IMG/VR virus record: IMGVR_UViG_3300020042_009788
Coordinates: 1 to 25,712 of that record
DNA from: a virus
Lineage: Duplodnaviria > Caudoviricetes
DNA length: 25,712 bases
Reading direction: 5' to 3' (one strand)
Shown here: positions 2,977 through 25,712 of the stretch, piece by piece
Layout of the letters: every line of letters begins with the position of its first letter
How positions within the stretch are numbered: the stretch's first letter is position 1
Position numbers and translations under genes: made by a program
Notes under the pieces: generated by a model
Seen by the model: the letters and a program-made list of their open reading frames with translations, nothing else
Database searches by the model: none
Told to the model about the DNA's origin: nothing

Positions 2977-3435
2977 TTAGAACGGTGGAATATCGTTTGG
3001 AAACGGTTGTGTGAAAGCATCAACTGGTGTTGCCCATGGGTCGTTTCTATCGACGCTTTGACTTGAACTAATTCTTTCTACTCGTCTGATAGTTGCAGTG
3101 GCTTTACTTAAATCAGGACCAATAGAATAACAAGTTACATCTATCCTATTTCTTTTCTGTCCTGTTTGTTTATCATCCCAACTAACTGATGCTGCTTTCC
3201 CGTATGCAATAACTTTGTCACCTTTATCTAAAGATGAACAAATGTTTTCTGCTAACTCAGCCCAAGCAGAACAATTCCAATAGGTAACATCTTTACTTTC
3301 CCATTGACCTGTTTGTTCATTCTTTGAACGAGCACTTGTAACTATTGTGAAAGACGTAACTGATTTGCCTGTTCCAGTTAACTTTAATTCTGGTTTAGCG
3401 GCAAGGTTGCCTTGTAATGTAATGAACTGACTCAT
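2977..3435 (-). CDS. ssb: Single-stranded DNA-binding protein (actinobacterial type)
   Basis: OB-fold pattern ITLQGNL..PELK.T..GKSV.SF, CSAW..LAEN...SL.KGD.V, IGPDL, DPW and acidic C-terminal DIPPF. Confidence 0.93.
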   Translation of the reverse strand: MSQFITLQGNLAAKPELKLTGTGKSVTSFTIVTSARSKNEQTGQWESKDVTYWNCSAWAELAENICSSLDKGDKVIAYGKAASVSWDDKQTGQKRNRIDVTCYSIGPDLSKATATIRRVERISSSQSVDRNDPWATPVDAFTQPFPNDIPPF

Positions 3436-3463
3436 TTTTCACTCTGCTTTCTTTTTGTTTGTT

Positions 3464-3751
3464 TTAGTGGTTGTTGTTTTGGTTAAAGAGTGAGAACCTA
3501 AAAGGTTCTATTTCATTTTGTTTCCTAGCCTCCATTCTTTCTTGCGGAGTTGTTCCGCCCCAGACACCATCAAGGTCTCTATGTAAAGCGTACTGGTAAC
3601 ACTCTAATTGAAACACACAACTCTGACAAAGTTTTCTTGCAGCACGTAACGCTATTTCGTATTGGTTAGCGCGAACTGGAAAGAACAACTCTGGGTCTGT
3701 TTGAGCACAAGGTTGTGAACCATCCACGTTTGGATAAGGAGGTCTTTTCAT
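3464..3751 (-). CDS. whiB: WhiB-family Fe-S transcription factor
   Basis: Four conserved Cys (CAQTDPELFFP, C..C, EC) and the GVWGG turn. Confidence 0.95.
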   Translation of the reverse strand: MKRPPYPNVDGSQPCAQTDPELFFPVRANQYEIALRAARKLCQSCVFQLECYQYALHRDLDGVWGGTTPQERMEARKQNEIEPFRFSLFNQNNNH

Positions 3752-3754
3752 TTA

Positions 3755-3910
3755 TCAGCGAAAGTAATTAACAATCACGAAGCCAATATAAATTCCAACT
3801 ACTCCAAGTATTCCCGCTAAAGCGCTTGGTGCTGGTATTGGAAGCCTAAATAAACTAAATAAACAACCCACCGCTAATCCTGTTAGTAAAGGTAATAATA
3901 GTTCTTTCAT
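3755..3910 (-). CDS. XapX / DUF1427-like small membrane protein (51 aa)
   Basis: Not in the ORF track. MKELLLPLLTGLAVGCLFSLFRLPIPAPSALAGILGVVGIYIGFVIVNYFR: two hydrophobic helices linked by LPIPAP..LAG; TAATG overlap with the upstream gene. Confidence 0.8.
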   Translation of the reverse strand: MKELLLPLLTGLAVGCLFSLFRLPIPAPSALAGILGVVGIYIGFVIVNYFR

Positions 3911-4182
3911 TAGAAATCCTCATCTCCGTCGTCTTCTTCTTCTAAAGCAAAATCTTCTGATACTTGACTAAGAGCATAGGAGAGAAGTCCTTCAACTCTC
4001 CAAGGGGGTATTCCTTCGTCTCCATGAGTGGATAACCAGAAGTCTCCATTGGAGTCAACCCATTCGGCAACAAGAACAAAGTTGGTACACATAGCACCTT
4101 TTTTATCAAGGTGGGTCGCAAGTTCAGTGAGCATGTTTTTTATTTTGTGTGTTGCTTCAACGTTTTCAGACATACGAACCAC
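3910..4182 (-). CDS. Hypothetical protein with an acidic tail
   Basis: FVLVAEW.DS.G..W...PPWRVEGLL pattern; start may be the ATG at 4173. Confidence 0.75.
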   Translation of the reverse strand: MVRMSENVEATHKIKNMLTELATHLDKKGAMCTNFVLVAEWVDSNGDFWLSTHGDEGIPPWRVEGLLSYALSQVSEDFALEEEDDGDEDF

Positions 4183-4268
4183 CTTCCCTTTTAATGTATC
4201 GAAAAAAGTCTAAACCTATTGATTATTTGATTACAATGGGGGTCTTTTGGCGAGTCTTAACTATTCCC

Positions 4269-4973
4269 TTAGTTGTATTCTTTTCTATTCCAGTAGTTGT
4301 CTTTATAGTAATTTTTGAACTTTCGTCCAAACTCTGCATTCTTTTTAATACTACTTTTCAAATCAAACTCATTAACATTAGATTCCCAACTCTCTCTCTT
4401 TATTGGAACAAATTGCATAATTGGAGTCCCTGCTGGAATTAAGCCCTCAAAACTTTTATGTAAATAAAATGGAACATTTGCACCGTCTTTTGCAACAAGG
4501 TCTGAAGAATCGGTGTCCATAATTCCAGTGCAAGTCATAAATGGTAAGTCGTATCTATTAAATGGGTGGGTGACTAACAGACTAAAACCTTTTGGTAATT
4601 TGACTCCCCAATGCTTTTTCCAAACAAATTCTAGATTGTCGTAAGAGTTGTTTACAGGCAGAGACGATTTCTCTCTTGTTGATAACAATTCGGGTTGTCC
4701 AGAATAAAAGTATTCGACTTCTTCACCATACCTTTTAATGTACAGGTCACACCAAGTTGTTAAAATATATCCCGAAGTTAAAGCATCAAAAAAAGGAATA
4801 CAAGATTTAAGATTTAGATTTGTTATTCCTCCTAAATTGTTAAACTCAGGATTTTTATGATTATGCCCTGGTATGTCCTTAAACCATTGTGGAATATGTT
4901 TTTTAGCAGGTTGAGGTGGTGTTGTTCCTAGAGACACAAATTCACTTCTGGGAATAAATTGAATCTCTAACAT
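4269..4973 (-). CDS. DUF6065-like phage protein (possible dUTPase-like beta fold)
   Basis: IPQWFK, KSCIPFFDALTSGY, HPFNR, GIMDTD and GTPIMQFVPIKR motifs; this kind of protein often sits next to phage 2OG oxygenases. Confidence 0.55.
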   Translation of the reverse strand: MLEIQFIPRSEFVSLGTTPPQPAKKHIPQWFKDIPGHNHKNPEFNNLGGITNLNLKSCIPFFDALTSGYILTTWCDLYIKRYGEEVEYFYSGQPELLSTREKSSLPVNNSYDNLEFVWKKHWGVKLPKGFSLLVTHPFNRYDLPFMTCTGIMDTDSSDLVAKDGANVPFYLHKSFEGLIPAGTPIMQFVPIKRESWESNVNEFDLKSSIKKNAEFGRKFKNYYKDNYWNRKEYN

Positions 4974-4982
4974 TAGATAGTT

Positions 4983-5600
4983 TTATTCACTGTCTTTAAT
5001 CCATGTAACAATTGCGTATTTTGTTCCTTTAGTAACAGGGTGAGCGATATGAGTGTAAGCGTAGTTGGCTGGAAATATCATTAAAGTATTTGCTTTTGGT
5101 TTTATTTTTAGACCAAAATTAACAAACTCTATCTCTCCACCCTCATAGTCGTCATTGAGATACAAAATTGGTGACATGTATCTTTTAGTTGAAGGACCGC
5201 CATCATAATGGGCTTTGTATTCTTGTCCACCAGAGTATTTAATAACATTGTAGCCTTCAAAAAATATCTCTTGTTCAATACCAAATTGTTGATTATAGCC
5301 AATACATGTTTCTAGTAACAATGTATGGTATGAATTATGTATTTTTTGTAGTATTGGATTACCAGTATTTGAGGTTTCAGTAGATAAAGGGATTGTTAAA
5401 TTCGTTCGTTTGAAATTAACAATTTGGGCTTTTGTTGTTGCTCTAAGCCACCTGACGCTTGAGTTTAAGTCTGTTGTTACTTCTTCTAAATCAGTTATGA
5501 TTTGTTTTGGGTTGTCTATTGCATTTTCATAAATGTTAATTGCTCCAGCAACCGTCTTTGTTGGTTCTTTTAGTGTTACATGAAAGCCGTTTACATACAT
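4983..5600 (-). CDS. 2OG-Fe(II) oxygenase (prolyl-4-hydroxylase-like)
   Basis: HYD (HxD), YLNDDYEGGEIEF, distal H in THIAHPV, and GTKY; AAGGAG SD upstream. Confidence 0.92.
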   Translation of the reverse strand: MYVNGFHVTLKEPTKTVAGAINIYENAIDNPKQIITDLEEVTTDLNSSVRWLRATTKAQIVNFKRTNLTIPLSTETSNTGNPILQKIHNSYHTLLLETCIGYNQQFGIEQEIFFEGYNVIKYSGGQEYKAHYDGGPSTKRYMSPILYLNDDYEGGEIEFVNFGLKIKPKANTLMIFPANYAYTHIAHPVTKGTKYAIVTWIKDSE

Positions 5601-5638
5601 TTGAACTCCTTTTTACTTCCTACTTCAGATACTACTCG

Positions 5639-5943
5639 TGGTATCTATGTGGTTACTACAGGATACCTGTGGGGTATTTCATTGGTAACTGGGTGGTAAC
5701 TATGAGATACCAATGCGGTAACTCAAAGATACCAAGTAGATACCAACAAGATACCAACACAATACCAACAAGATACCAATGGAATACCGAGCAGATACCG
5801 ACATGGTTACTAAGAGATACCAACGTGGTATTTGACAGATACCAACGAGATACCAGCGTGGTTACTGTGTGGTATTTGTTTGGTAACTTGAAGATACCAG
5901 CGTGGTATTTGAGTGGTAACTGTGTTTTGTTCTCCAGGTATCT
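5639..5943. repeat. Array of 8-mers (AGATACCA or reverse-type TGGTWWYT) at an exact 11-bp period
   Basis: Units start at 5639, 5650, 5661 and so on to 5914 (26 consecutive), then one mismatched slot (5925) and an in-phase AGGTATCT at 5936. 13 forward and 13 reverse units with variable 3-nt spacers. Confidence 0.93.
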
Positions 5944-6017
5944 ATTGCTTTACAATATGAACACGTTTTGTTGTCCATAACCCATGCACCACATAAACAT
6001 CTTATTATTTTTCCCAT
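5862..6017 (-). CDS. Small Cys-rich protein (CxCG...CxxC) whose 3' end reads into the array
   Basis: Hand translation MGKIIRCLCGAWVMDNKTCSYCKAIDTWRTKH..., 51 aa; AGGA just upstream. Confidence 0.5.
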   Translation of the reverse strand: MGKIIRCLCGAWVMDNKTCSYCKAIDTWRTKHSYHSNTTLVSSSYQTNTTQ

Positions 6018-6091
6018 TGTCCTGCTTCTAACCATATTGCAACAATGGCAAGGATTATTAAACCAGCGCCCATAGAAATTATTATGTTCAC
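6005..6091 (-). CDS. Small single-pass membrane peptide (28 aa)
   Basis: GTG abuts the upstream TAA; MNIIISMGAGLIILAIVAIWLEAGQWEK. Confidence 0.5.
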   Translation of the reverse strand: MNIIISMGAGLIILAIVAIWLEAGQWEK

Positions 6092-6376
6092 TTATAAACC
6101 TTTTTTGTGTTTATGAACTGTTGGGTCAATATGGTCGGCGAAGCCTTTGAGAGTCATTTCAATAATTTCCTTTGCATGCTCATCAGCCTCAACTGGAACT
6201 CTGGTTGAAAGGAAACGAGCGTAATCTGCAATTGTTATTAAACAGGACTCTGCTTCCTCAATGTAACTTATTTGAACTGTTGGTGCCAAAGTATCAAAAG
6301 GTGGGAGTTCATCTGAACCCATATAGTTGTAGACCGCTTCTGCTGTTATCTTAATCAGTCCTGTTGCAAGTTCCAT
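6092..6376 (-). CDS. Hypothetical protein
   Basis: Start moved to the ATG at 6376 (TAATG overlap with the transglycosylase stop). Confidence 0.7.
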   Translation of the reverse strand: MELATGLIKITAEAVYNYMGSDELPPFDTLAPTVQISYIEEAESCLITIADYARFLSTRVPVEADEHAKEIIEMTLKGFADHIDPTVHKHKKGL

Positions 6377-6840
6377 TAGTACCAATTCTTTTTGTTATGG
6401 AAAGATAAAGCACCGCAAGGACTCAAATGCCTGTTGTCAATATATTTTAACCCTAATTCTATTTGAATATCGGGTGGTGTTTTTGGGTCAAGTCTGAGCA
6501 TTTGCGGAATACCAAAAGCGGAAGATGTTGGGTTGTCTGCAAGATAATTCCAATTACTTTCCCTATCCCAAAGTTCAACCAAACACTTAAACTCTTGTTC
6601 GCCCCAACCATATTTGCTTATCTTTGTTCTAGCGTATTGTCTTGAAACCTCTGGTGTCCAATGTTGGTACTTAAAACGTCTTTCAGTTTCGAGTCTTTCC
6701 ATAATTAGACGAGGCGTAGGTTTCTGTTCGTCCATAACCTGAACTGGTTCAGCGTGTACTTGAACAACTGTAATAACTAAAACCAAAACTAAAACCAAAT
6801 GAACTATTAGTCTTAATCTTGTTATTTGCTTTAAGGACAT
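6376..6840 (-). CDS. Secreted or membrane-anchored lytic transglycosylase (SLT-like, actinobacterial type)
   Basis: N-terminal hydrophobic segment; CL..LW.RESNWN..A.NPTSSAFGIPQ, QI..GL.YI..R and C-terminal NWY. Confidence 0.85.
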   Translation of the reverse strand: MSLKQITRLRLIVHLVLVLVLVITVVQVHAEPVQVMDEQKPTPRLIMERLETERRFKYQHWTPEVSRQYARTKISKYGWGEQEFKCLVELWDRESNWNYLADNPTSSAFGIPQMLRLDPKTPPDIQIELGLKYIDNRHLSPCGALSFHNKKNWY

Positions 6841-6990
6841 TTAAGCCTCCTGAGTATCACCGTTTGATTGACAAAGATATTCGTTACAACATGAGCAACG
6901 CCATACAGTATTATTTTCCTCGTGATAGGCGAGATATTGCTCTCTGCTAATTGTATCGGAATTAAAATAAGATTTCTTTACTTCATTCAT
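6841..6990 (-). CDS. Small hypothetical protein (49 aa)
   Basis: Fills the gap exactly (ATGA overlap; TAA abuts the next ATG); MNEVKKSYF...WRCSCCNEYLC... Confidence 0.6.
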   Translation of the reverse strand: MNEVKKSYFNSDTISREQYLAYHEENNTVWRCSCCNEYLCQSNGDTQEA

Positions 6991-7259
6991 AAAAACTCCC
7001 TAACCGTGTCGACAACAGAATCAATTTCAGCACCATGATAAACGCTGTAATCATTCCACCAGTCCTCCCGACGATACACTCTTAAAACGCATTCAAAGGG
7101 CTTTTTAGCGTCTTCTGCATAAACTATTAGAACATTGTTACCAATATCAAAACTGAGGCTTCTGCCGTCGTTTGATTTAGGGACAGATATTTCTTCATCT
7201 ATTAAACGTTCAACTAATTTTGTTAATGACTGAGTAAAGGTTATTTGTTCTTTTAACAT
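6987..7259 (-). CDS. Hypothetical protein
   Basis: CCAAGGAG SD; 90 aa. Confidence 0.75.
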   Translation of the reverse strand: MLKEQITFTQSLTKLVERLIDEEISVPKSNDGRSLSFDIGNNVLIVYAEDAKKPFECVLRVYRREDWWNDYSVYHGAEIDSVVDTVREFL

Positions 7260-7285
7260 TTATGCTCCTTGGTAAGCAGTTGTTG

Positions 7286-7654
7286 TTAACTATTTGACCA
7301 TTCTTTTGCTGGGTAAAGTGGAACATTGTGTTTTGTTCTCACTTCATGTTTGGCATCTGTGAGTGTTTCTTCGGCAGTTACTTTGACGTTGAAGTCTTGT
7401 AACTTTTTTTGTTGAGCATCTCTCACAACGTTTACTAAATGTTCATTAGAAGCATACACATCAAGTATTGCAACTAATTCAAGATTAAGGTTATCCCAAC
7501 CAAAAGTGTTAATTTGAACATTATCAAATAAAAGGTTGTTAAGAGTGTCTCTACCCGACAAAGCATCCAAAGAAGGCACGGAGACTGTTAAAAAGGTTTT
7601 CACTAACTTTTCACCCCCTTGAGGTGTTGAGTTCGTTCCTCTCAACTGTATCAC
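7286..7654 (-). CDS. Hypothetical protein
   Basis: Open frame; start is either GTG 7654 (after TAGAGT-N6) or GTG 7603 (after GGGGGTGA). Confidence 0.65.
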   Translation of the reverse strand: MIQLRGTNSTPQGGEKLVKTFLTVSVPSLDALSGRDTLNNLLFDNVQINTFGWDNLNLELVAILDVYASNEHLVNVVRDAQQKKLQDFNVKVTAEETLTDAKHEVRTKHNVPLYPAKEWSNS

Positions 7655-8777: not shown

Positions 8778-9218
8778 TTATTGTTCTCCCTTTTCGCTAA
8801 TAATCCAAACAATTGCATCATTACCTTGGTTAGTTTTTCTCCTACTACCACTATCAACTATCCAACCATCTTTCATCAACGAGTTCCTTGAAGCAGAAGC
8901 AGACTGATGCAACCAACCAGTACGTTGTTCAATTTCGTGGTCACATAAACCAAACATTCCTTCTGATTTAATTAACTCATAAATCTTTCTACGTTTAGTA
9001 CCACTTTTAGGAAACGCTTTACCCATAGCGTTCAAAGAAGTATCTCTAGCGTTCCTAGAAACAGAAACAACATTACGGTCAATACTTTTACGACCAGTTG
9101 TTAAAGCGTATCCAGGTTTTCCTCCGTTAGCGAACCTGCAATTAGCACAATAATTCTCGCCTCTAGGATTACCATGTTCACACTCAACAACTAACGAATC
9201 AAATAAAGGGTCACTCAT
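8778..9218 (-). CDS. Winged-helix DNA-binding protein with an N-terminal Cys motif
   Basis: Start moved to ATG 9218 (GAGGAG SD). CEHG...C..C, then IYELIK..G..GL.D.EI...GW..SASA.R..L...GWI.DSG.RR.T..G..AIVW, a phage wHTH pattern. Confidence 0.65.
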   Translation of the reverse strand: MSDPLFDSLVVECEHGNPRGENYCANCRFANGGKPGYALTTGRKSIDRNVVSVSRNARDTSLNAMGKAFPKSGTKRRKIYELIKSEGMFGLCDHEIEQRTGWLHQSASASRNSLMKDGWIVDSGSRRKTNQGNDAIVWIISEKGEQ

Positions 9219-9363
9219 TTGATTTCTCCTCGCCATCAAACCATTCATTTTCATCCTCCCCGTTGCACCTCTTACATAAAAGCGTCCAGCCTCTTGCCAC
9301 CTTTGCACCTGACATTCCACATCTTTCACAAAAAACTCGTACAAAACCTTGGTCTGTTTCCAT
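9211..9363 (-). CDS. Small zinc-ribbon protein (50 aa)
   Basis: Hand translation METDQGFVRVFCERCG...LLCKRCNGEDENEW...; two CxxC; TAATG overlap. Confidence 0.65.
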   Translation of the reverse strand: METDQGFVRVFCERCGMSGAKVARGWTLLCKRCNGEDENEWFDGEEKSNE

Positions 9364-9805: not shown

Positions 9806-10015
9806 TTATTTATCTGAAACCTTAACCCAAAGAGTTCCACCTTTAATTGAAGTGGAAACCTTTTTATTGTTCTTTGTTGCAAAATGCCACAAGCGACCAC
9901 GAAGCCGAGCAATTTCTGCTTTACTTGTTGGCAATTGAAACTCTTTCTCAAATGATGCAATTGATTGAGTTGTTGCAAAACGCATTTCGTCACCATTTAA
10001 TTCAGGTAAAGACAT
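9806..10015 (-). CDS. Small basic hypothetical protein
   Basis: AAGGAG SD; 69 aa. Confidence 0.7.
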   Translation of the reverse strand: MSLPELNGDEMRFATTQSIASFEKEFQLPTSKAEIARLRGRLWHFATKNNKKVSTSIKGGTLWVKVSDK

Positions 10016-10040
10016 TTACTTCTCCTTAGTTAGTTGTTAG

Positions 10041-11214: not shown

Positions 11215-11608
11215 TAACTCCTCCTGTGTTTTTGATAATACGCATTCCAACATGAACAACTTCACCATATGTACTAATTGGGCGTCCACTTAGAAATTCA
11301 TACTTTAGATTGTTCTTCAAACAATAAAGTTCAATCTTTAAGAAGAACACTTCTCTTTCATAACGTAAAGCCATATTTTTTGTATAATCATTGTTACCAT
11401 AAACGTCAATTCCACCAGCAAATTGAATTAAGGTTTTGTCATTACGACTTCTAGTAAAACCTCTACCATAATTACGACTGTAGCGGTCTTTTTCTTTATA
11501 GTAACGAACATCAATTGCCTTTGCTAACTTCTCAATTGCTTGCCAAGTGAATTCTTGGTATTGAACTTCTTCTTGACTTACTGTTCTTTCTAATGTTGCG
11601 TTTGTCAT
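11207..11608 (-). CDS. Hypothetical protein, first gene after the bipartite motif
   Basis: AAGGAG SD; 133 aa. Confidence 0.8.
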   Translation of the reverse strand: MTNATLERTVSQEEVQYQEFTWQAIEKLAKAIDVRYYKEKDRYSRNYGRGFTRSRNDKTLIQFAGGIDVYGNNDYTKNMALRYEREVFFLKIELYCLKNNLKYEFLSGRPISTYGEVVHVGMRIIKNTGGVNE

Positions 11609-11644
11609 TTCTTTCTCCTTCTGGTAGGTACTTCCTTGATACTT

Positions 11645-11878: not shown

Positions 11879-12040
11879 CTATTCTTTGTTCCTTATAGAG
11901 AACGTTACAGCCCATAAAATTAAAGTCAAGACTATTGAGTAACCAACAACAGTTTTTGCGGAACCGTCTAAAACAACCCAGGCAATAAACATACCAAGTA
12001 GAGTCCAAGCCTGATTAAGTATGTCGCTTATAATTTTCAT
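11879..12040 (-). CDS. Small two-helix membrane protein (53 aa)
   Basis: Not in the ORF track. MKIISDILNQAWTLLGMFIAWVVLDGSAKTVVGYSIVLTLILWAVTFSIRNKE; ATGA overlap with the upstream gene. Confidence 0.8.
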   Translation of the reverse strand: MKIISDILNQAWTLLGMFIAWVVLDGSAKTVVGYSIVLTLILWAVTFSIRNKE

Positions 12041-13227
12041 TTCAACCTCCTTCTAATAGTTCCAGATGAACCACTTGCACCGCCACCAGCGCTTGAAGTT
12101 CCAGTTCCACTTATCATTGTGACAGATGTTGCTAAAGTTATCTGTCCAACAATCACGGAAGCGATAATAACTTTTTCAGATTCTTCTCTTTCAACTAAAG
12201 TCATATCAGCACCAACTTGTAGAAACGCTTCAACTGCTTGTCCAGGGTCAGAAAAGATTTCACCAATTAAAGCAACTGGGTTGTCTAAAAGTTCAAAAAC
12301 AATAACAACACCAACTTCAAGAACAACACCATCTGTGTATTCAACAAGTTGATTTGAGTCCAAGGTTTCTAGAAGTTCTAATGTTTCCTCTTCTGAAAGG
12401 TCTTCAAACACTTCCTCTAAAGGAATAATCTCATCCAATTGATATTCATAATCGGGGTTATACTGTTCTAAAGCCTCTTCTTGTATTAGTTCAATTAAGG
12501 ACTGTGGTGAATCCGTTACTTCTTCCACATTTAATTCTGTGTCAACAAATTCGTCTTCTATGTTTATTTGTTCAATTAACTCCTCTACAACCACCTGTGC
12601 TTCAACAGGTTCGGATAAAGTTATTGGTGGCTCTATTGGCTCTGGATTGTTATACTCTGGCAAAGTTGGTTCAGTTTCGACAACCGTTGGAGATGGAGTA
12701 GGAGAAGATGACGGACTTTCAATTGGTGTTGGTGTTGGCGTTGGGGTTGGTGTTAATGTCTCTTGGATATTTGTTGGTGATGGGCTTGGTGTTGGCAGGA
12801 TTAAATTAGTTTGTAGTAAAAAAGAACCAACAGGAAACTGTGTACCATTACTTACCACGTAGTTCCAAGAAGTTGCACGAATAAAATATTCTCCAGCCTG
12901 TAATGGAATAGAAATAATAGATGCTAAAACGTTTGTATTGGAATGAAGGCTGTCGTCATCATAAGCAAGACGAGTTGCGTTCTGCCAAACCTCAACCCAA
13001 GAATCAATCCAAGTACCACTATTAGATAAACCATTTACTGTTGTGATGGTTGCTTCTACGGGTTCTGTAATAGTTACTGGTAAATCAATGTAAGGAGTTG
13101 AAGAATCTAAGTTAACAGTTACTTCATCACCAAAAGCAGGAATAACCCAAATAAATAAAAATAAAAGAACACAAAAAATAATAGACAGTTTTCTCATCTG
13201 AGTCCCAAATAGGGACACAATGGTCAC
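12037..13227 (-). CDS. Secreted or membrane-anchored protein: signal peptide, PPC-like beta domain, Pro/Thr linker, acidic region, C-terminal hydrophobic segment
   Basis: MRKLSIIFCVLLFLF..AFG signal (start may be the ATG at 13197); DDDS...GEYFIRATS; (TP)n; VIIASVIVGQI...RRRLK. Confidence 0.7.
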   Translation of the reverse strand: MTIVSLFGTQMRKLSIIFCVLLFLFIWVIPAFGDEVTVNLDSSTPYIDLPVTITEPVEATITTVNGLSNSGTWIDSWVEVWQNATRLAYDDDSLHSNTNVLASIISIPLQAGEYFIRATSWNYVVSNGTQFPVGSFLLQTNLILPTPSPSPTNIQETLTPTPTPTPTPIESPSSSPTPSPTVVETEPTLPEYNNPEPIEPPITLSEPVEAQVVVEELIEQINIEDEFVDTELNVEEVTDSPQSLIELIQEEALEQYNPDYEYQLDEIIPLEEVFEDLSEEETLELLETLDSNQLVEYTDGVVLEVGVVIVFELLDNPVALIGEIFSDPGQAVEAFLQVGADMTLVEREESEKVIIASVIVGQITLATSVTMISGTGTSSAGGGASGSSGTIRRRLK

Positions 13228-21421: not shown

Positions 21422-22231
21422 CTATTCAGCCAATTTTAATTGACCCCAAGCCTCACTTTTTAACATTCCGTATTCGTCGCTATCAAAAGTTGACCAATCA
21501 ATATCAACTTTAGGTTTAACATGGCTTGGTGTAAAGGACTCGTATTGTTGAACACGTCCGTTACGAACAGTCATAAGTTCGTATTCGTTCATGTTAACAA
21601 CCCATTCCAATTCCAAGTTAACATTATCGCAAGCCTTAACCAATAAAGATTCAGTACTTGCAAATATGAAAGAACCTGCAACTGTTTGAGCAACAGCCAA
21701 AGGACTTGAAGTAACTCTCGCAACAGTTAAAGTTCTTGGCTTACGTCTGTCAATCCAAGCAACTGCGGCGCGACCATCAAGTTCCAATAAACTATCGGAA
21801 GCAGGAACTTCATCATATTTATTCAACAAAGCAAATATCGCTTCGCTGTCGACTTGTCCTTTACGAAACATTTTATGTGACTTAAAGATTTCTTTGTCGT
21901 TAGAAATATGTCCGTTGTGAACTCCAACGATATTCTTACAAACAATTGGATGATTGTTGTCCATATTTTTAGGACTTCCTTGAGTTGCATAACGAGTATG
22001 CAAAATACAGTTCTTAGTATTAGAAGCCATATTTTGCAAACGAGTTGCAACAAACAAAGGTGCAGGTTTATTCCAACGGCTGTATTTAACTTTATTCTCT
22101 TTCTTGTCAAACCAAGCCATTCCAGTTGCATCAGTTCCTCTTTCAACAATCTGATGCAACAAAGAACCTGCTAATGCTCTTGCGTCAATATGTTCTTTCT
22201 CGTTTATACAGAACCCTGCTATTCCACACAT
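21422..22231 (-). CDS. Class II (Ntn) glutamine amidotransferase
   Basis: N-terminal MCGIAG, RG.DATG, HTRYATQG, NNHP, HNGHISN, VDSE. Confidence 0.93.
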   Translation of the reverse strand: MCGIAGFCINEKEHIDARALAGSLLHQIVERGTDATGMAWFDKKENKVKYSRWNKPAPLFVATRLQNMASNTKNCILHTRYATQGSPKNMDNNHPIVCKNIVGVHNGHISNDKEIFKSHKMFRKGQVDSEAIFALLNKYDEVPASDSLLELDGRAAVAWIDRRKPRTLTVARVTSSPLAVAQTVAGSFIFASTESLLVKACDNVNLELEWVVNMNEYELMTVRNGRVQQYESFTPSHVKPKVDIDWSTFDSDEYGMLKSEAWGQLKLAE

Positions 22232-22262
22232 AATCTTTTCTCCTTGGTTAGTAGTTAATTAC

Positions 22263-23249
22263 TTACGCTGCAACTGAATTAAATAAGTAACCACTTGCTC
22301 TCATGTTTGCATGAGCACGCTTCAATAAGAATGAGCGAGTAGCAGTTGGTAATCCGTATTGAACAGCCTTATCTAAAACTTGTTCAATTGTTAATTGACC
22401 TAATTCGTCAACGTTTGAAAGAACTGCTGAATCAACTTCCATATTTGATTTAGCCCAATTTGCTAATGCTTGTTGTAATTGAACCCAAGCAGTAACTTTT
22501 TTAGAATTAACAGAACCGTTCATCATTCTTAATTCAACAGTTCCATGTTTCAAGATTGACATAATGTTGAAGTGGTTGTAACGACTCAAATTAAATTCGT
22601 TACGTGTATCTCCAACAAAAAGAGTATCTTGAATATGAGTTAAAGAAGAACGTCTCATTGGACTGCAATAGTTATTTCTACCACCACGACGTGATTTAGA
22701 AACTAACCATTCCAATTGAGTTTGGATACCAAAATAAATGCCAGCAAATTCTGCAACCATTTTATTTGATTCGCGTCTCATATCTAAGTGAACATGAATT
22801 CCACAAGTTACATTAACTCTTGCACCAGCACTCTTAAGAGCGTCGATTGCAAGTTTAAGTTCTTTGGAACCTTTCTTACCAGTACGGATTGGTGAAACTA
22901 ATTCAAGTCCTGAACCACAACCAGTGTTAGTTGAAGATACTGAACCATCAGTAGTAATTTTCCATTCAGTTGCATTTGCATCTCTGCGACCAGCAATCAC
23001 AACTGGAAGTGAAACTGATTGTAAAGCCATTTCAGCCATTTCTCTTGTGATACCAAAAAATTCTATTTCAACTCCGAAAGAACGGTCACCAGTTGTGTTA
23101 ACTGAATTGTTATCTTTAAGAGCAGACATAACTGCGTAACGTGCGGCACTTGGATAAGGACCGTAACCTAAACGTGTTGCAATTTGTCCGTAAGACAAAC
23201 CTTGATTTCTTAAAACTAATGCTTCTTGATGTCTTGAATTTGTAGGCAT
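22263..23249 (-). CDS. Putative amidoligase (COOH-NH2 ligase type 2) with an N-terminal HTH
   Basis: FGVEIEF, DGSV, ELVSP, CGIHVH, RY..FN, TVELR; N-terminal ALVLRNQGLSYGQIATRLGY. Confidence 0.88.
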   Translation of the reverse strand: MPTNSRHQEALVLRNQGLSYGQIATRLGYGPYPSAARYAVMSALKDNNSVNTTGDRSFGVEIEFFGITREMAEMALQSVSLPVVIAGRRDANATEWKITTDGSVSSTNTGCGSGLELVSPIRTGKKGSKELKLAIDALKSAGARVNVTCGIHVHLDMRRESNKMVAEFAGIYFGIQTQLEWLVSKSRRGGRNNYCSPMRRSSLTHIQDTLFVGDTRNEFNLSRYNHFNIMSILKHGTVELRMMNGSVNSKKVTAWVQLQQALANWAKSNMEVDSAVLSNVDELGQLTIEQVLDKAVQYGLPTATRSFLLKRAHANMRASGYLFNSVAA

Positions 23250-23296
23250 TTTCTGTTCTCCTTGGTTAAGTGGGTTCTGGTTAAACCCTCTTAAAA

Positions 23297-23824: not shown

Positions 23825-25474
23825 TCAACTTTTCTCCTTATCTAATGCTCTCTTAGTTAAACGAATAAGTAAATCTGAAACAACGTTTGCTGTACTCGTC
23901 TTTTCTAAACCTTCCGTTGTAGCGTTCACAACAATACGTTTCTCATCTATAAGTTTTTTAATATCTTCATCTATTGTGTTCTCCAATAGAAGCCACCAAC
24001 CTGTAACAGAATCTTTTTGACCAATACGGTGACATCTATCTATTGCTTGGTCCATATCTGCTGGAGTCCAACCAGACTCAACAAAAAGAACATTTGACGC
24101 TGAAGTCAAAGTTATTCCAACACCACCCGCTTTAATTGTACAAACAATAAGATTAACTAAATCATTGAACTGAAAATTCTCAATAGCGTCTGCTCTTTGT
24201 TGTTCAGTTGACTCTCCTGTTATGTGAACACAATTAAACTCTTCAATTATTTCTTTAGCAATATCTTTATGCCAAGTGAAAACAACAAGTTTCTGACCGC
24301 TTTCCAAAAAGTCTGTAATCCATTGTTTAGTTGAAACCATTTTTGCTTTAGCACTTAACTGTCTTAAAGTATTAAGTGCAATCAGGTGTTGAGCCGATTG
24401 TGCTTTAACTGCTGTTTGCCAAGCAACATCTCTAACGTTTAGTCCTTGCTCTTTGGCATTAGTTGTTGCAATTTCTACTAAGTAAGAAATTAAATCATTC
24501 TCTGCTTTAACATATTCACTTAAATCAGAAGGCTCAACATAAACTGAACTCCAACGTTTAGAAGGCAAATCAACCAACACATCACATTTCTTTCTACGAA
24601 TATACATAGAACGTCTTAACAAACTATTCAATGCTGGAAGTTTTCTTAACTCCACATACTCTTTCCTAAACGCAGAGGCCCCACCAAATTGTTTAAGTTG
24701 CCGTAAAACTCTTAACTGTCCAATAAGTTCTGTTGGATTATTCAAAATGGGTGTACCTGTTAAACAAAGAATTAAACCATCATCTTGAACTTTATCTGAT
24801 AAAGAGAAACAAGACTTAGTTCGTTTTGCTATTGGATTCTTTGCATAATGGCTTTCATCAAAAATAGCAGACTTGATACTATGGAACTTTGGTTCCCAAT
24901 GAATTAAAACATCATAGTTAACAATATAAACATCAGCGTGAACAAGAGTCCCTTTTGTACCTTTTAATACTTTAACTTTCCACTCAGGAACCCATTTGTT
25001 TATTTCTTTCAACCAATTCAACTTAACGCTTGCTGGACAAACAATTACAGCAGGCAAACTATTCAAATGTTTAATAGCAGCAATTGCTTGAACGGTTTTA
25101 CCCAAACCCATTTCATCAGCAATAAAACTTCTTCTAGTTTCAACAACGTATTCAACACCTGCCTTTTGAAAAGGCATAAGAGTTCCAGATAAACCTTCAA
25201 CCTCGAAATTACTTCTAGTCGCTCTACTCTTTTTCAACAATAAAGTTTCTCTTTCAACTTCTTTGAATATCGCTTCACAATTTACACTCACAGGAATATT
25301 TTGTTGATAGGCAAACAAAGCAACCTCGGCAGCAGATTGTTTAGGAGCAACCCAACATTTTTTAATTGGTGACCAATACGCTTTAGGTATTTCTAAGACA
25401 CGTTCAATAACTTCCTCTGAGTAATCAATTTGTAATTCAAACTCAAAGGTGTCAAAGTTAATCCATTTATTCAA
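23825..25474 (-). CDS. SNF2-family (HARP-like) helicase
   Basis: DEMGLGKT, DESH, LTGTP, GVGITLT, QAIDRCHRIGQ. Start moved to TTG 25474 (GGAG upstream; avoids a long overlap with the sulfotransferase). Confidence 0.92.
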   Translation of the reverse strand: MNKWINFDTFEFELQIDYSEEVIERVLEIPKAYWSPIKKCWVAPKQSAAEVALFAYQQNIPVSVNCEAIFKEVERETLLLKKSRATRSNFEVEGLSGTLMPFQKAGVEYVVETRRSFIADEMGLGKTVQAIAAIKHLNSLPAVIVCPASVKLNWLKEINKWVPEWKVKVLKGTKGTLVHADVYIVNYDVLIHWEPKFHSIKSAIFDESHYAKNPIAKRTKSCFSLSDKVQDDGLILCLTGTPILNNPTELIGQLRVLRQLKQFGGASAFRKEYVELRKLPALNSLLRRSMYIRRKKCDVLVDLPSKRWSSVYVEPSDLSEYVKAENDLISYLVEIATTNAKEQGLNVRDVAWQTAVKAQSAQHLIALNTLRQLSAKAKMVSTKQWITDFLESGQKLVVFTWHKDIAKEIIEEFNCVHITGESTEQQRADAIENFQFNDLVNLIVCTIKAGGVGITLTSASNVLFVESGWTPADMDQAIDRCHRIGQKDSVTGWWLLLENTIDEDIKKLIDEKRIVVNATTEGLEKTSTANVVSDLLIRLTKRALDKEKS

Positions 25475-25712
25475 CTTTATTATTTCTCCAGAATTCGTAA
25501 TTTGAATACTTAGATAAAACATAATCACTTAAAACGTCTTGAGGTTTTTTAGATACCTTTTTGACAGGTTTTCTTATAGTGTGCATATCTTTAATCCCAT
25601 AAACATCATCCCTAATAACTAACGTGTTCTGTAAGGTATCAAAAGTATGTTCAAATTCTTCCAGTTCTAAAAAATTGTAGATTTTTGATAACGTATCTTT
25701 TGGTTCGTGAAC
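25467..25712 (-). CDS. Sulfotransferase-family protein, C-terminal fragment (partial)
   Basis: Not in the ORF track. ...VHEPKDTLSKIYNFLELEEFEHTFD...DDVYGIKDMHTIR...PQDVLS...YEFWR fits the P..TL..IY.FL C-terminal pattern; PAPS motifs would lie outside the window. Confidence 0.65.
   Translation of the reverse strand, partial: VHEPKDTLSKIYNFLELEEFEHTFDTLQNTLVIRDDVYGIKDMHTIRKPVKKVSKKPQDVLSDYVLSKYSNYEFWRNNKVE

Follow-up and report, generated by a model that had tools for sequence, protein, structure and literature searches.

What is a row of 26 short, pseudo-palindromic DNA sites, set exactly 11 bp apart, doing in the genome of a bacteriophage? Phased site arrays are known in replication origins, centromeres and operators, where they lie beside the gene of the protein which uses them. 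The array described here belongs to this class of phased binding arrays in a novel form. No report of such an array was found among the titles and opening lines of abstracts of the open-licence literature.

The phage and its probable host

The array lies in a window of 25,712 nucleotides (the whole stretch of DNA which was analysed), a linear virus record estimated by CheckV to be about 40% complete, with about 60% of the genome absent. All long ORFs of the window are on the minus strand, and the genes of this strand include an SNF2 helicase, an amidoligase, ParB_N proteins, 7-deazaguanine genes, a terminase, a transglycosylase, WhiB, SSB and a portal. The large terminase shares 52-55% identity with its counterparts in Arthrobacter phages including Kovu and Laroye, and the gene order of the window was also found in phage Kovu. 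The WhiB gene and the related Arthrobacter phages together suggest an actinobacterial host. The sequencing runs which hold the stretch best are freshwater or riverine. blastn of the array and the window against INPHARED and PLSDB gave no match.

Other features of the genome were also observed. The 4-base palindromes AGCT (0 against 76 expected), GATC (0 against 51) and CCGG (0 against 10) are wholly lost from the window. AGCT is missing from every relative checked (G001-G004) while the other avoided words vary by genome, and palindrome loss co-occurs with the 7-deazaguanine genes in these phages. A leader of the form ACC(A/AC)-AAGGAG recurs ahead of several genes (7259-7275, 10015-10040, 11608-11630, 22231-22262 and 23249-23275), and AACCACGAAGGAG is the most enriched intergenic word among the relatives. 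At the end of the window, upstream of SNF2 and in the position of HNH in relatives, an open-ended minus-strand ORF (25467-25712) has no Pfam match; we take it to resemble a sulfotransferase tail.

Organization of the array

The elements of the array are as follows (F and R denote units in forward and reverse orientation).

5639..5921, the array itself, 26 pseudo-palindromic 8-mers (13 in each orientation) with starts exactly 11 bp apart and the oriented consensus A-G/A-A/T-T/A-A-C-C-A
5936..5943, a 27th unit, AGGTATCT, in phase after one empty slot, inside the coding tail of a small Cys-rich ORF
5627..5634, a further F-like unit outside the grid (12 bp off), which overlaps a -10-like TAGTAT (5634-5629, minus strand) of putative promoter role

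The sequence-only reading had proposed an 11-bp phase without indels and a mixed order of units, and both were reproduced. Unit starts run from 5639 to 5914 with zero indels, the slot at 5925 is empty and the unit at 5936 is again in phase, while the order of the 13 F and 13 R units is RRFRRRFRFFFFFFFRFRFFRRRFRR. Autocorrelation gave a self-identity of 0.48-0.59 at lags 11, 22 and onwards to 66 against 0.19-0.30 at other lags, and the longest phased run was 26 in the array against 1-2 in 200 of 200 window shuffles. ACC at positions 5-7 is invariant in all 26 oriented units. The core GATACC was observed in 11 of 13 F units and in only one of 13 R units (Fisher p=2e-4); R units are not inverted F units. 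The fully symmetric core GGTACC has zero occurrences among the array units. Restriction avoidance was rejected as the cause of this absence, with GTAC found 46 times in the window against 47 expected.

Spacers had been described as varying freely, which is mostly so (15 distinct among 26) but not wholly, with 0.07-0.52 bits per position. The order of orientations is random by a runs test (13 runs against 14.0 expected), and the junction types are evenly spread (FF 7, RR 6, RF 6, FR 6). Two block duplications are visible, of units 5-9 with 15-19 and of units 0-4 with 21-25, about 77% alike, with the partners 10 and 21 units off. The earlier argument that mixed orientation kept in register reveals selection stands in part. 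Mismatches against the class consensus fall on 35 of 75 spacer positions and on none of the 78 ACC positions, which supports selection on the cores, but the register argument alone is insufficient because an inversion with its ends in an F and an R unit would leave the grid unchanged. The array is real and, judged from these patterns, probably selected.

Contigs from four independent studies (2019-2024) carry the array with a stable unit order, and an assembly artefact was therefore rejected. Run X1 extends without a gap over 5473-6465 and differs by 12 substitutions, and runs X2, X3 and X4 span parts of the array with 1, 2 and 0 differences, respectively. Variant density in X1 is alike in the array (3 in 305 bp) and the flanks (9 in 688 bp). 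Of the three array variants, two are at spacer bases and one at an outer base, a number too small for a test of constraint, as the chance of none in a core hexamer is about 0.1.

Insertion of the array with a two-gene cassette

The surroundings of the array comprise the following features, all on the minus strand.

4983..5600, minus, 2OG-Fe(II) oxygenase gene (PF13640, E 1.5e-15; phrog_61), first in the cassette, 39 nt downstream of the array, absent here in relatives
4269..4973, minus, phrog_7084 gene of unassigned function, second in the cassette, with the relatives' homologues elsewhere in the genome
5606..5611, minus, Shine-Dalgarno-like AAGGAG, by sequence, ahead of the start codon at 5600
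5862..6017, minus, small Cys-rich ORF conserved in relatives, with a tail of about 27 codons inside the array, which marks the upstream insertion junction
6092..6385, minus, conserved upstream flanking gene o6092
3910..4182, minus, conserved downstream flanking gene o3910, which heads the o3910-WhiB-SSB-portal run

The array occupies the space between the tail of the Cys-rich ORF and the leader of the oxygenase gene. The -10-like TAGTAT was not among the predictions of a sigma-70 scan. Both flanking genes are present in 22 of 80 portal-related loci, where they are 358-441 nt apart against about 2,200 in the window. None of these 22 syntenic relatives has the cassette genes between the flanking genes, and a block of about 1.8 kb, representing the array and the two genes, is missing in all of them. 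A motif-free 11-bp detector, by which the window scores 10/10, was run on 94 related stretches including four near-complete genomes. A comparable array was absent from all 94, the best mixed 11-bp score being 5/10 and higher scores appearing only at periods 9 or 12. The lack of the array in relatives, which the sequence-only reading had named as grounds for refutation, is seen at 63-76% portal identity, while near-identical populations keep the array. The array is an accessory insertion.

One AAGTTAC(C/T)-like motif was found in the same gap in 22 of 22 syntenic relatives, on the strand where R units read AGTTACCA, by a pattern written after seeing the relatives' gaps. It is possible that this word was the seed of the array. 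The cassette genes are lower in GC than the flanks and show no skew. A locus search with phrog_7084 gave no confirmed relative, and at none of 79 loci with related 2OG oxygenases did a top score of at least 5 belong to period 11. Three RNA runs contain 7-10% of the words of 3400-7300, which gives no evidence on transcription of the array. Elsewhere in the window an acidic, Pro/Thr-rich ORF with a membrane anchor (12037-13227) was observed, and many genes of related 2OG oxygenases likewise have Pro-rich repeats next to them; on these two observations prolyl hydroxylation is a possible role of the cassette.

Look-alike arrays in other sequences

Searches with exact patterns of 3 to 7 units yielded 13 and 10 viral loci, 26 genome loci and 30 metagenome loci; they were built from the array's own words and are therefore biased toward its motif, and part of the loci were scanned for neighbours. 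Viral look-alikes are mostly iterons within initiator genes. Among the loci with scanned neighbours, arrays adjoin ParA at L235, L242, L252/L373/L377 and L385. At L385, 40 units of the same motif, with an 11-bp step and mixed orientation, lie in blocks between a ParA gene and an ORF whose resemblance to ribbon-helix-helix (RHH) proteins is a lead only. Taken as a whole, L385:5244-7030, with ParA, the RHH-like ORF and 45 GGTATC/GATACC units at 11-bp steps, looks like a type Ib partition locus whose centromere is large. A look-alike array was also found between hxlR and FMN reductase genes (L240), and at L206/L230 and L243 arrays stand ahead of an Arc-like or MazE-like gene, both under the cut-off (4 units before the Arc-like gene in L206, E 0.0055). 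Some look-alike contigs have no family match at all. Similar words also form 11- and 22-bp repeats in unrelated metagenome contigs, one of which adjoins an insect cuticle gene.

The design of phased sites in mixed orientation is therefore already known, from phage-initiator iterons, ParA-linked arrays and HxlR or Arc-like operators. The array differs in its extent and diversity. It has 15 distinct spacers among 26, whereas seven metagenome arrays with an 11-bp step and 13-22 units have 2-7, and no look-alike showed 26 units in one aperiodic grid without a break and with varied spacers. Matches to a looser pattern of 7 units in IMG/VR were mostly same-strand or plain tandem repeats, and none of the 120 loci examined resembled the array. 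The three-unit pattern RFR was found in 2 of 401 Actinomycetia genomes, one being the source of the query. Going by these sequences, the motif, the 11-bp period and the mixed orientation are a common code of several protein folds. Because several folds use them, motif and period cannot name the binder.

Alternative explanations for the array

A neutral or selfish minisatellite, arising from slippage, block duplication and inversion at the insertion junction, would leave block duplications of the kind seen here and would be absent from relatives. Similar-word repeats of 11 and 22 bp in unrelated metagenome contigs and the flank-like variant density of X1 are consistent with it, and since F/R inversion preserves the register a neutral origin keeps some likelihood. 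It is decidedly unlikely all the same, as the spacers are saturated around an invariant ACC without indel while those of the comparator arrays are uniform, R cores differ from inverted F cores, and unit order was stable across the four studies. Much less probable still is a centromere of type Ib or II at work in the partition of an extrachromosomal prophage. The repeats of the array lie on a regular grid as those of a centromere do, and motif and architecture match the ParA-linked arrays L385, L235 and L242. About one site per turn is also a feature of type II parC/ParR of plasmid R1; parC reportedly has an 11-bp period and ten direct repeats split by a promoter, and is said to need ParM, whereas the array is of mixed orientation and the window has no ParM gene. 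Actinobacteriophages with parABS exist, according to the excerpted text of PMC7157519. The absence of a ParA gene noted in the sequence-only reading was confirmed among the window ORFs scanned and extends to all five related records, of which three are 90% complete or more; this tells against the centromere which that reading had proposed. No par gene adjoins the array, and the ParB-like proteins have ParB_N domains only, lie within the 7-deazaguanine cluster and are present in array-less relatives. A structured RNA, a single-stranded DNA element or a plus-strand coding sequence (5540-5980) is hardly plausible. The fold of the array is stronger than that of dinucleotide shuffles (z -6.0 plus, -4.5 minus), but unit/spacer shuffles fold as well (plus 26, 43 and 44 of 60; minus 42, 56 and 59 of 60), and no Rfam match was found at the array. 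The 146-codon plus-strand frame which is open across it has no Pfam match, and 2 of 4 variants in it fall at second codon positions against 6 of 6 at third positions in the neighbouring real gene; a conserved coding sequence was rejected for want of coding constraint in this frame. Least credible of all is the earlier proposal that the array is a platform for DNA packaging (pac). The window does encode TerS, which has an HTH domain, but it lies 9 kb off and is common to array-less relatives, and packaging is essential whereas the array is accessory.

Two further explanations carry more weight. The array may represent extra iterons for a winged-helix phage initiator, as a second origin like SPP1 oriR or for titration of the phage's own or a competing initiator; this is unlikely, though a serious candidate. 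Its unit motif and 11-bp step match initiator iterons of known type. In the first pattern set 10 of 13 viral loci lie inside HTH_36 genes (4 Pfam-tested, 6 near-copies of L202), and in the second set 9 of 10 lie in O-like, DUF1376 or replisome-organiser-like genes (3 Pfam-named, 5 resembling L335 and L338 by reading). L211 and L382 have units and mixed order in common with the window. Phage iterons associated with HTH_36/PF13730, Phage_rep_O/PF04492 and DUF1376, and those of SPP1 oriL/oriR, resemble the array in words, step and mixed orientation (L202, L204, L209, L211, L382, L335), and the excerpts of PMC5737612 state that SPP1 G38P binds both oriL and oriR. The phage family of the window uses an HTH_36-G39P module; HTH_36-G39P-HNH stands just upstream of SNF2 in seven of 28 loci of relatives with the same SNF2 module, as in phage Kovu, so the phage's own initiator probably lies beyond the window's end. 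However, iteron sets found have 3-10 units inside the gene while the array has 26 in an intergenic position, far from the expected initiator gene, and the family's own iterons differ. None of 80 loci with family initiators has at least four phased units of the array motif and 2 have three; the repeats in their linkers are of other kinds, and their recognition helices are unlike those of GATACC-type initiators. PF13730 was not found in G000, the array is neither inside nor beside an initiator gene, and an HTH_36 initiator is present in 1 of 4 near-complete relatives. The window has no skew switch, and the nearest AT-rich patch (78% AT, 6071-6110), found after the fact, is 128 bp off. DnaA-box-like words, by a consensus which we take to be that of the box, are scattered in the window and none is telling. 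The origin suggested by the sequence-only reading is unlikely, at least as the primary one, because family initiators sit elsewhere and use other iterons, with four phased units at 0 of 80 loci. The other explanation is that the units are boxes for the host OmpR-family regulators MtrA or GlnR, draining the regulator from host promoters or subjecting the cassette to it. This reading competes seriously but does not lead, and is improbable. Excerpts of PMC6265350 and PMC13718301 give the MtrA motif as c-G-T/A-n-A-C/T-c in an 11-bp repeat, those of PMC5650626 give the same motif and period, and the motif of C. glutamicum MtrA is an 8-bp repeat with a 3-bp linker in those of PMC3353115. According to the excerpted PMC11825685, OmpR-type MtrA and GlnR bind head to tail, and tandem dimers up to hexamers load at promoters. 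The array shares the spacing of 8 bp plus 3 bp and the core G-W-n-A-Y-c, G-W-n-A-Y-C fitting 20 of 26 units, and has 5 perfect direct pairs against 0 elsewhere in the window. In small Actinomycetia genomes, MtrA was over the cut-off in 2 of 2 rhodopsin-bearing genomes tested, 11-bp GTAAC pairs precede amtB in 15 of 24 loci, a GACAC-n6-GATACC pair, to which the array corresponds in part, precedes one NlpC/P60 gene in 6 of 12 readable stretches (of 18), and array-type direct pairs in 18 genomes are intergenic in 10 of 27 cases against a background of 12.6%. This excess fades against 10- and 13-bp spacing (10/27 vs 8/46, p=0.09), and array-type pairs are rarer than reversed controls (27 vs 81, 10 vs 39, 111 vs 161). 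Known MtrA and GlnR boxes are direct repeats of 2-6 half-sites, whereas the orientation in the array is random; inverted junctions make up 12 of the 25, and direct pairs do not exceed the number seen in shuffles (5 vs 7.0). By an amtB-box matrix 3 of 28 slots score well, with the commonest unit at -1.4 bits. As the host group is itself deduced, the genomes compared for regulators may not be those of the host.

The small Actinomycetia genomes are of 1.3-1.5 Mb, have rhodopsin in 24 of 26 and are presumably Nanopelagicales-like. They encode 4-5 OmpR-type regulators including MtrA; one of the regulators, which no model names, we take to be GlnR. Three direct units were found in 0 of 18 small genomes, and the dnaA-dnaN regions of 16 have no array-type pairs. 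A matrix including pairs picked for array-like cores scored 18 of 26 units but was circular and was set aside. Upstream of one amtB group in small freshwater-type Actinomycetia (L532-L549), two conserved 11-bp pairs and a single half-site were observed; the 11-bp pairs upstream of amtB are likely GlnR boxes.

Observations were also made on initiators and candidate origins of other phages. HTH_36 initiators with GATACC/GGTATC iterons (L202, L204, L209, L211, L382) share a recognition-helix start S/K-R-x-T/S, which is absent from the initiators of the window family and is possibly a code of iteron specificity. In three relatives an ORF-free, hairpin-rich stretch of about 390 nt, 75-83% conserved, lies between the ERF and HNH genes (L215:8290-8682 in G001, L222:6613-6959 in G003, L217:13106-13377 in G002). 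G004 has an HTH_36 initiator and a G39P-like gene at this position, and L215 has no Rfam match. The stretch is a candidate for an initiator-free origin or a non-coding RNA, for which the RNA-based phage origins in the excerpts of PMC7157519 offer a comparison.

An amplified operator as the favoured reading

The reading we favour, tentatively and at somewhat less than even confidence, is that the array serves the cassette promoter as an amplified operator. Its binder would be a dimer indifferent to orientation, predicted to be of the ribbon-helix-helix type, for which the array may also be a sink. Direct and inverted junctions are equally common, which suggests that each 8-mer would be one whole site for a pseudo-symmetric dimer, bound in either orientation and touching its neighbour one turn away. 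Dimers would line up along one face of the DNA, one site per helical turn. Block duplication may have built the row at its present site, with the lone similar motif of the relatives as a possible starting point. It would control the cassette promoter and soak up the bound protein, encoded in the missing 60% or so of the genome, in the host or in a co-resident element. We infer binding from the grid, the RHH type from binding and regulation from position.

The earlier proposal of a protein-binding row is supported so far as sequence can tell, by double-stranded sites at one per turn and by the selection on cores; the mixed orientation points to recognition of double-stranded DNA. Its likeness to centromeres and iterons was borne out, as the array motif itself occurs there. 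Operator and sink would be the simplest role because the row ends 4 bp before the -10-like hexamer, which the extra unit overlaps. Such an end is the geometry of a repressor, with the promoter guessed from one hexamer. According to the excerpted text of PMC5016525, omega binds direct and inverted repeats alike through the pseudo-symmetry of its dimer, and pSM19035 parS/omega and TP228 parH/ParG resemble the array in having short direct and inverted units, which in those systems are bound in this way; the period of omega is 7 (heptads) against 11 in the array. The type Ib locus L385 shares GGTATC/GATACC units at 11 bp, but type Ib centromeres differ from the array, which is one unbroken 26-unit grid rather than blocks and has no ParA or RHH gene near it or in relatives. 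HxlR-family and Arc-like operators (L240, L206) also carry this motif in a promoter region, as 3-4 units with an 11-bp step; these units alternate strictly and lie next to a regulator gene, whereas the array has 26 units in random order and no regulator gene.

Some findings stand against the operator. The look-alike searches found initiator genes more often than RHH genes, a symmetric binder doesn't predict the F/R core difference or the absent GGTACC, and 26 sites far exceed the need of a promoter. The binders named in the sequence-only reading (wHTH, TerS and ParB-like proteins) are not supported, all being common to array-less relatives. RHH_1 and Arc were each over the cut-off in 0 of 5 records (the window and four relatives), though short RHH genes can escape Pfam, and 26 small ORFs of the window gave no RHH or Arc match. 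Two candidates inside the window were rejected: the wHTH (8778-9344), with a model pLDDT of 78.5 and weak winged-helix matches, none at E<=0.001, and ORF 9806-10015, with no family match.

Significance of the array for phage biology

The array stands alone as an accessory insert without ParA in the related records, and exceeds the iteron and operator sets found three- to six-fold in length. Were its binder a phage repressor, the array would be a curiosity of operator amplification. A more doubtful possibility is that it works as a DNA sponge, its 26 boxes being copied with the phage genome and draining host MtrA or GlnR, or the initiator of a rival phage, from their own sites. If true, this would be a protein-free takeover of cell-wall, division or nitrogen control in streamlined freshwater Actinomycetota with their 4-5 OmpR-type regulators. 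Binding by a host regulator or a rival initiator would mean that phages can use naked DNA as a decoy.
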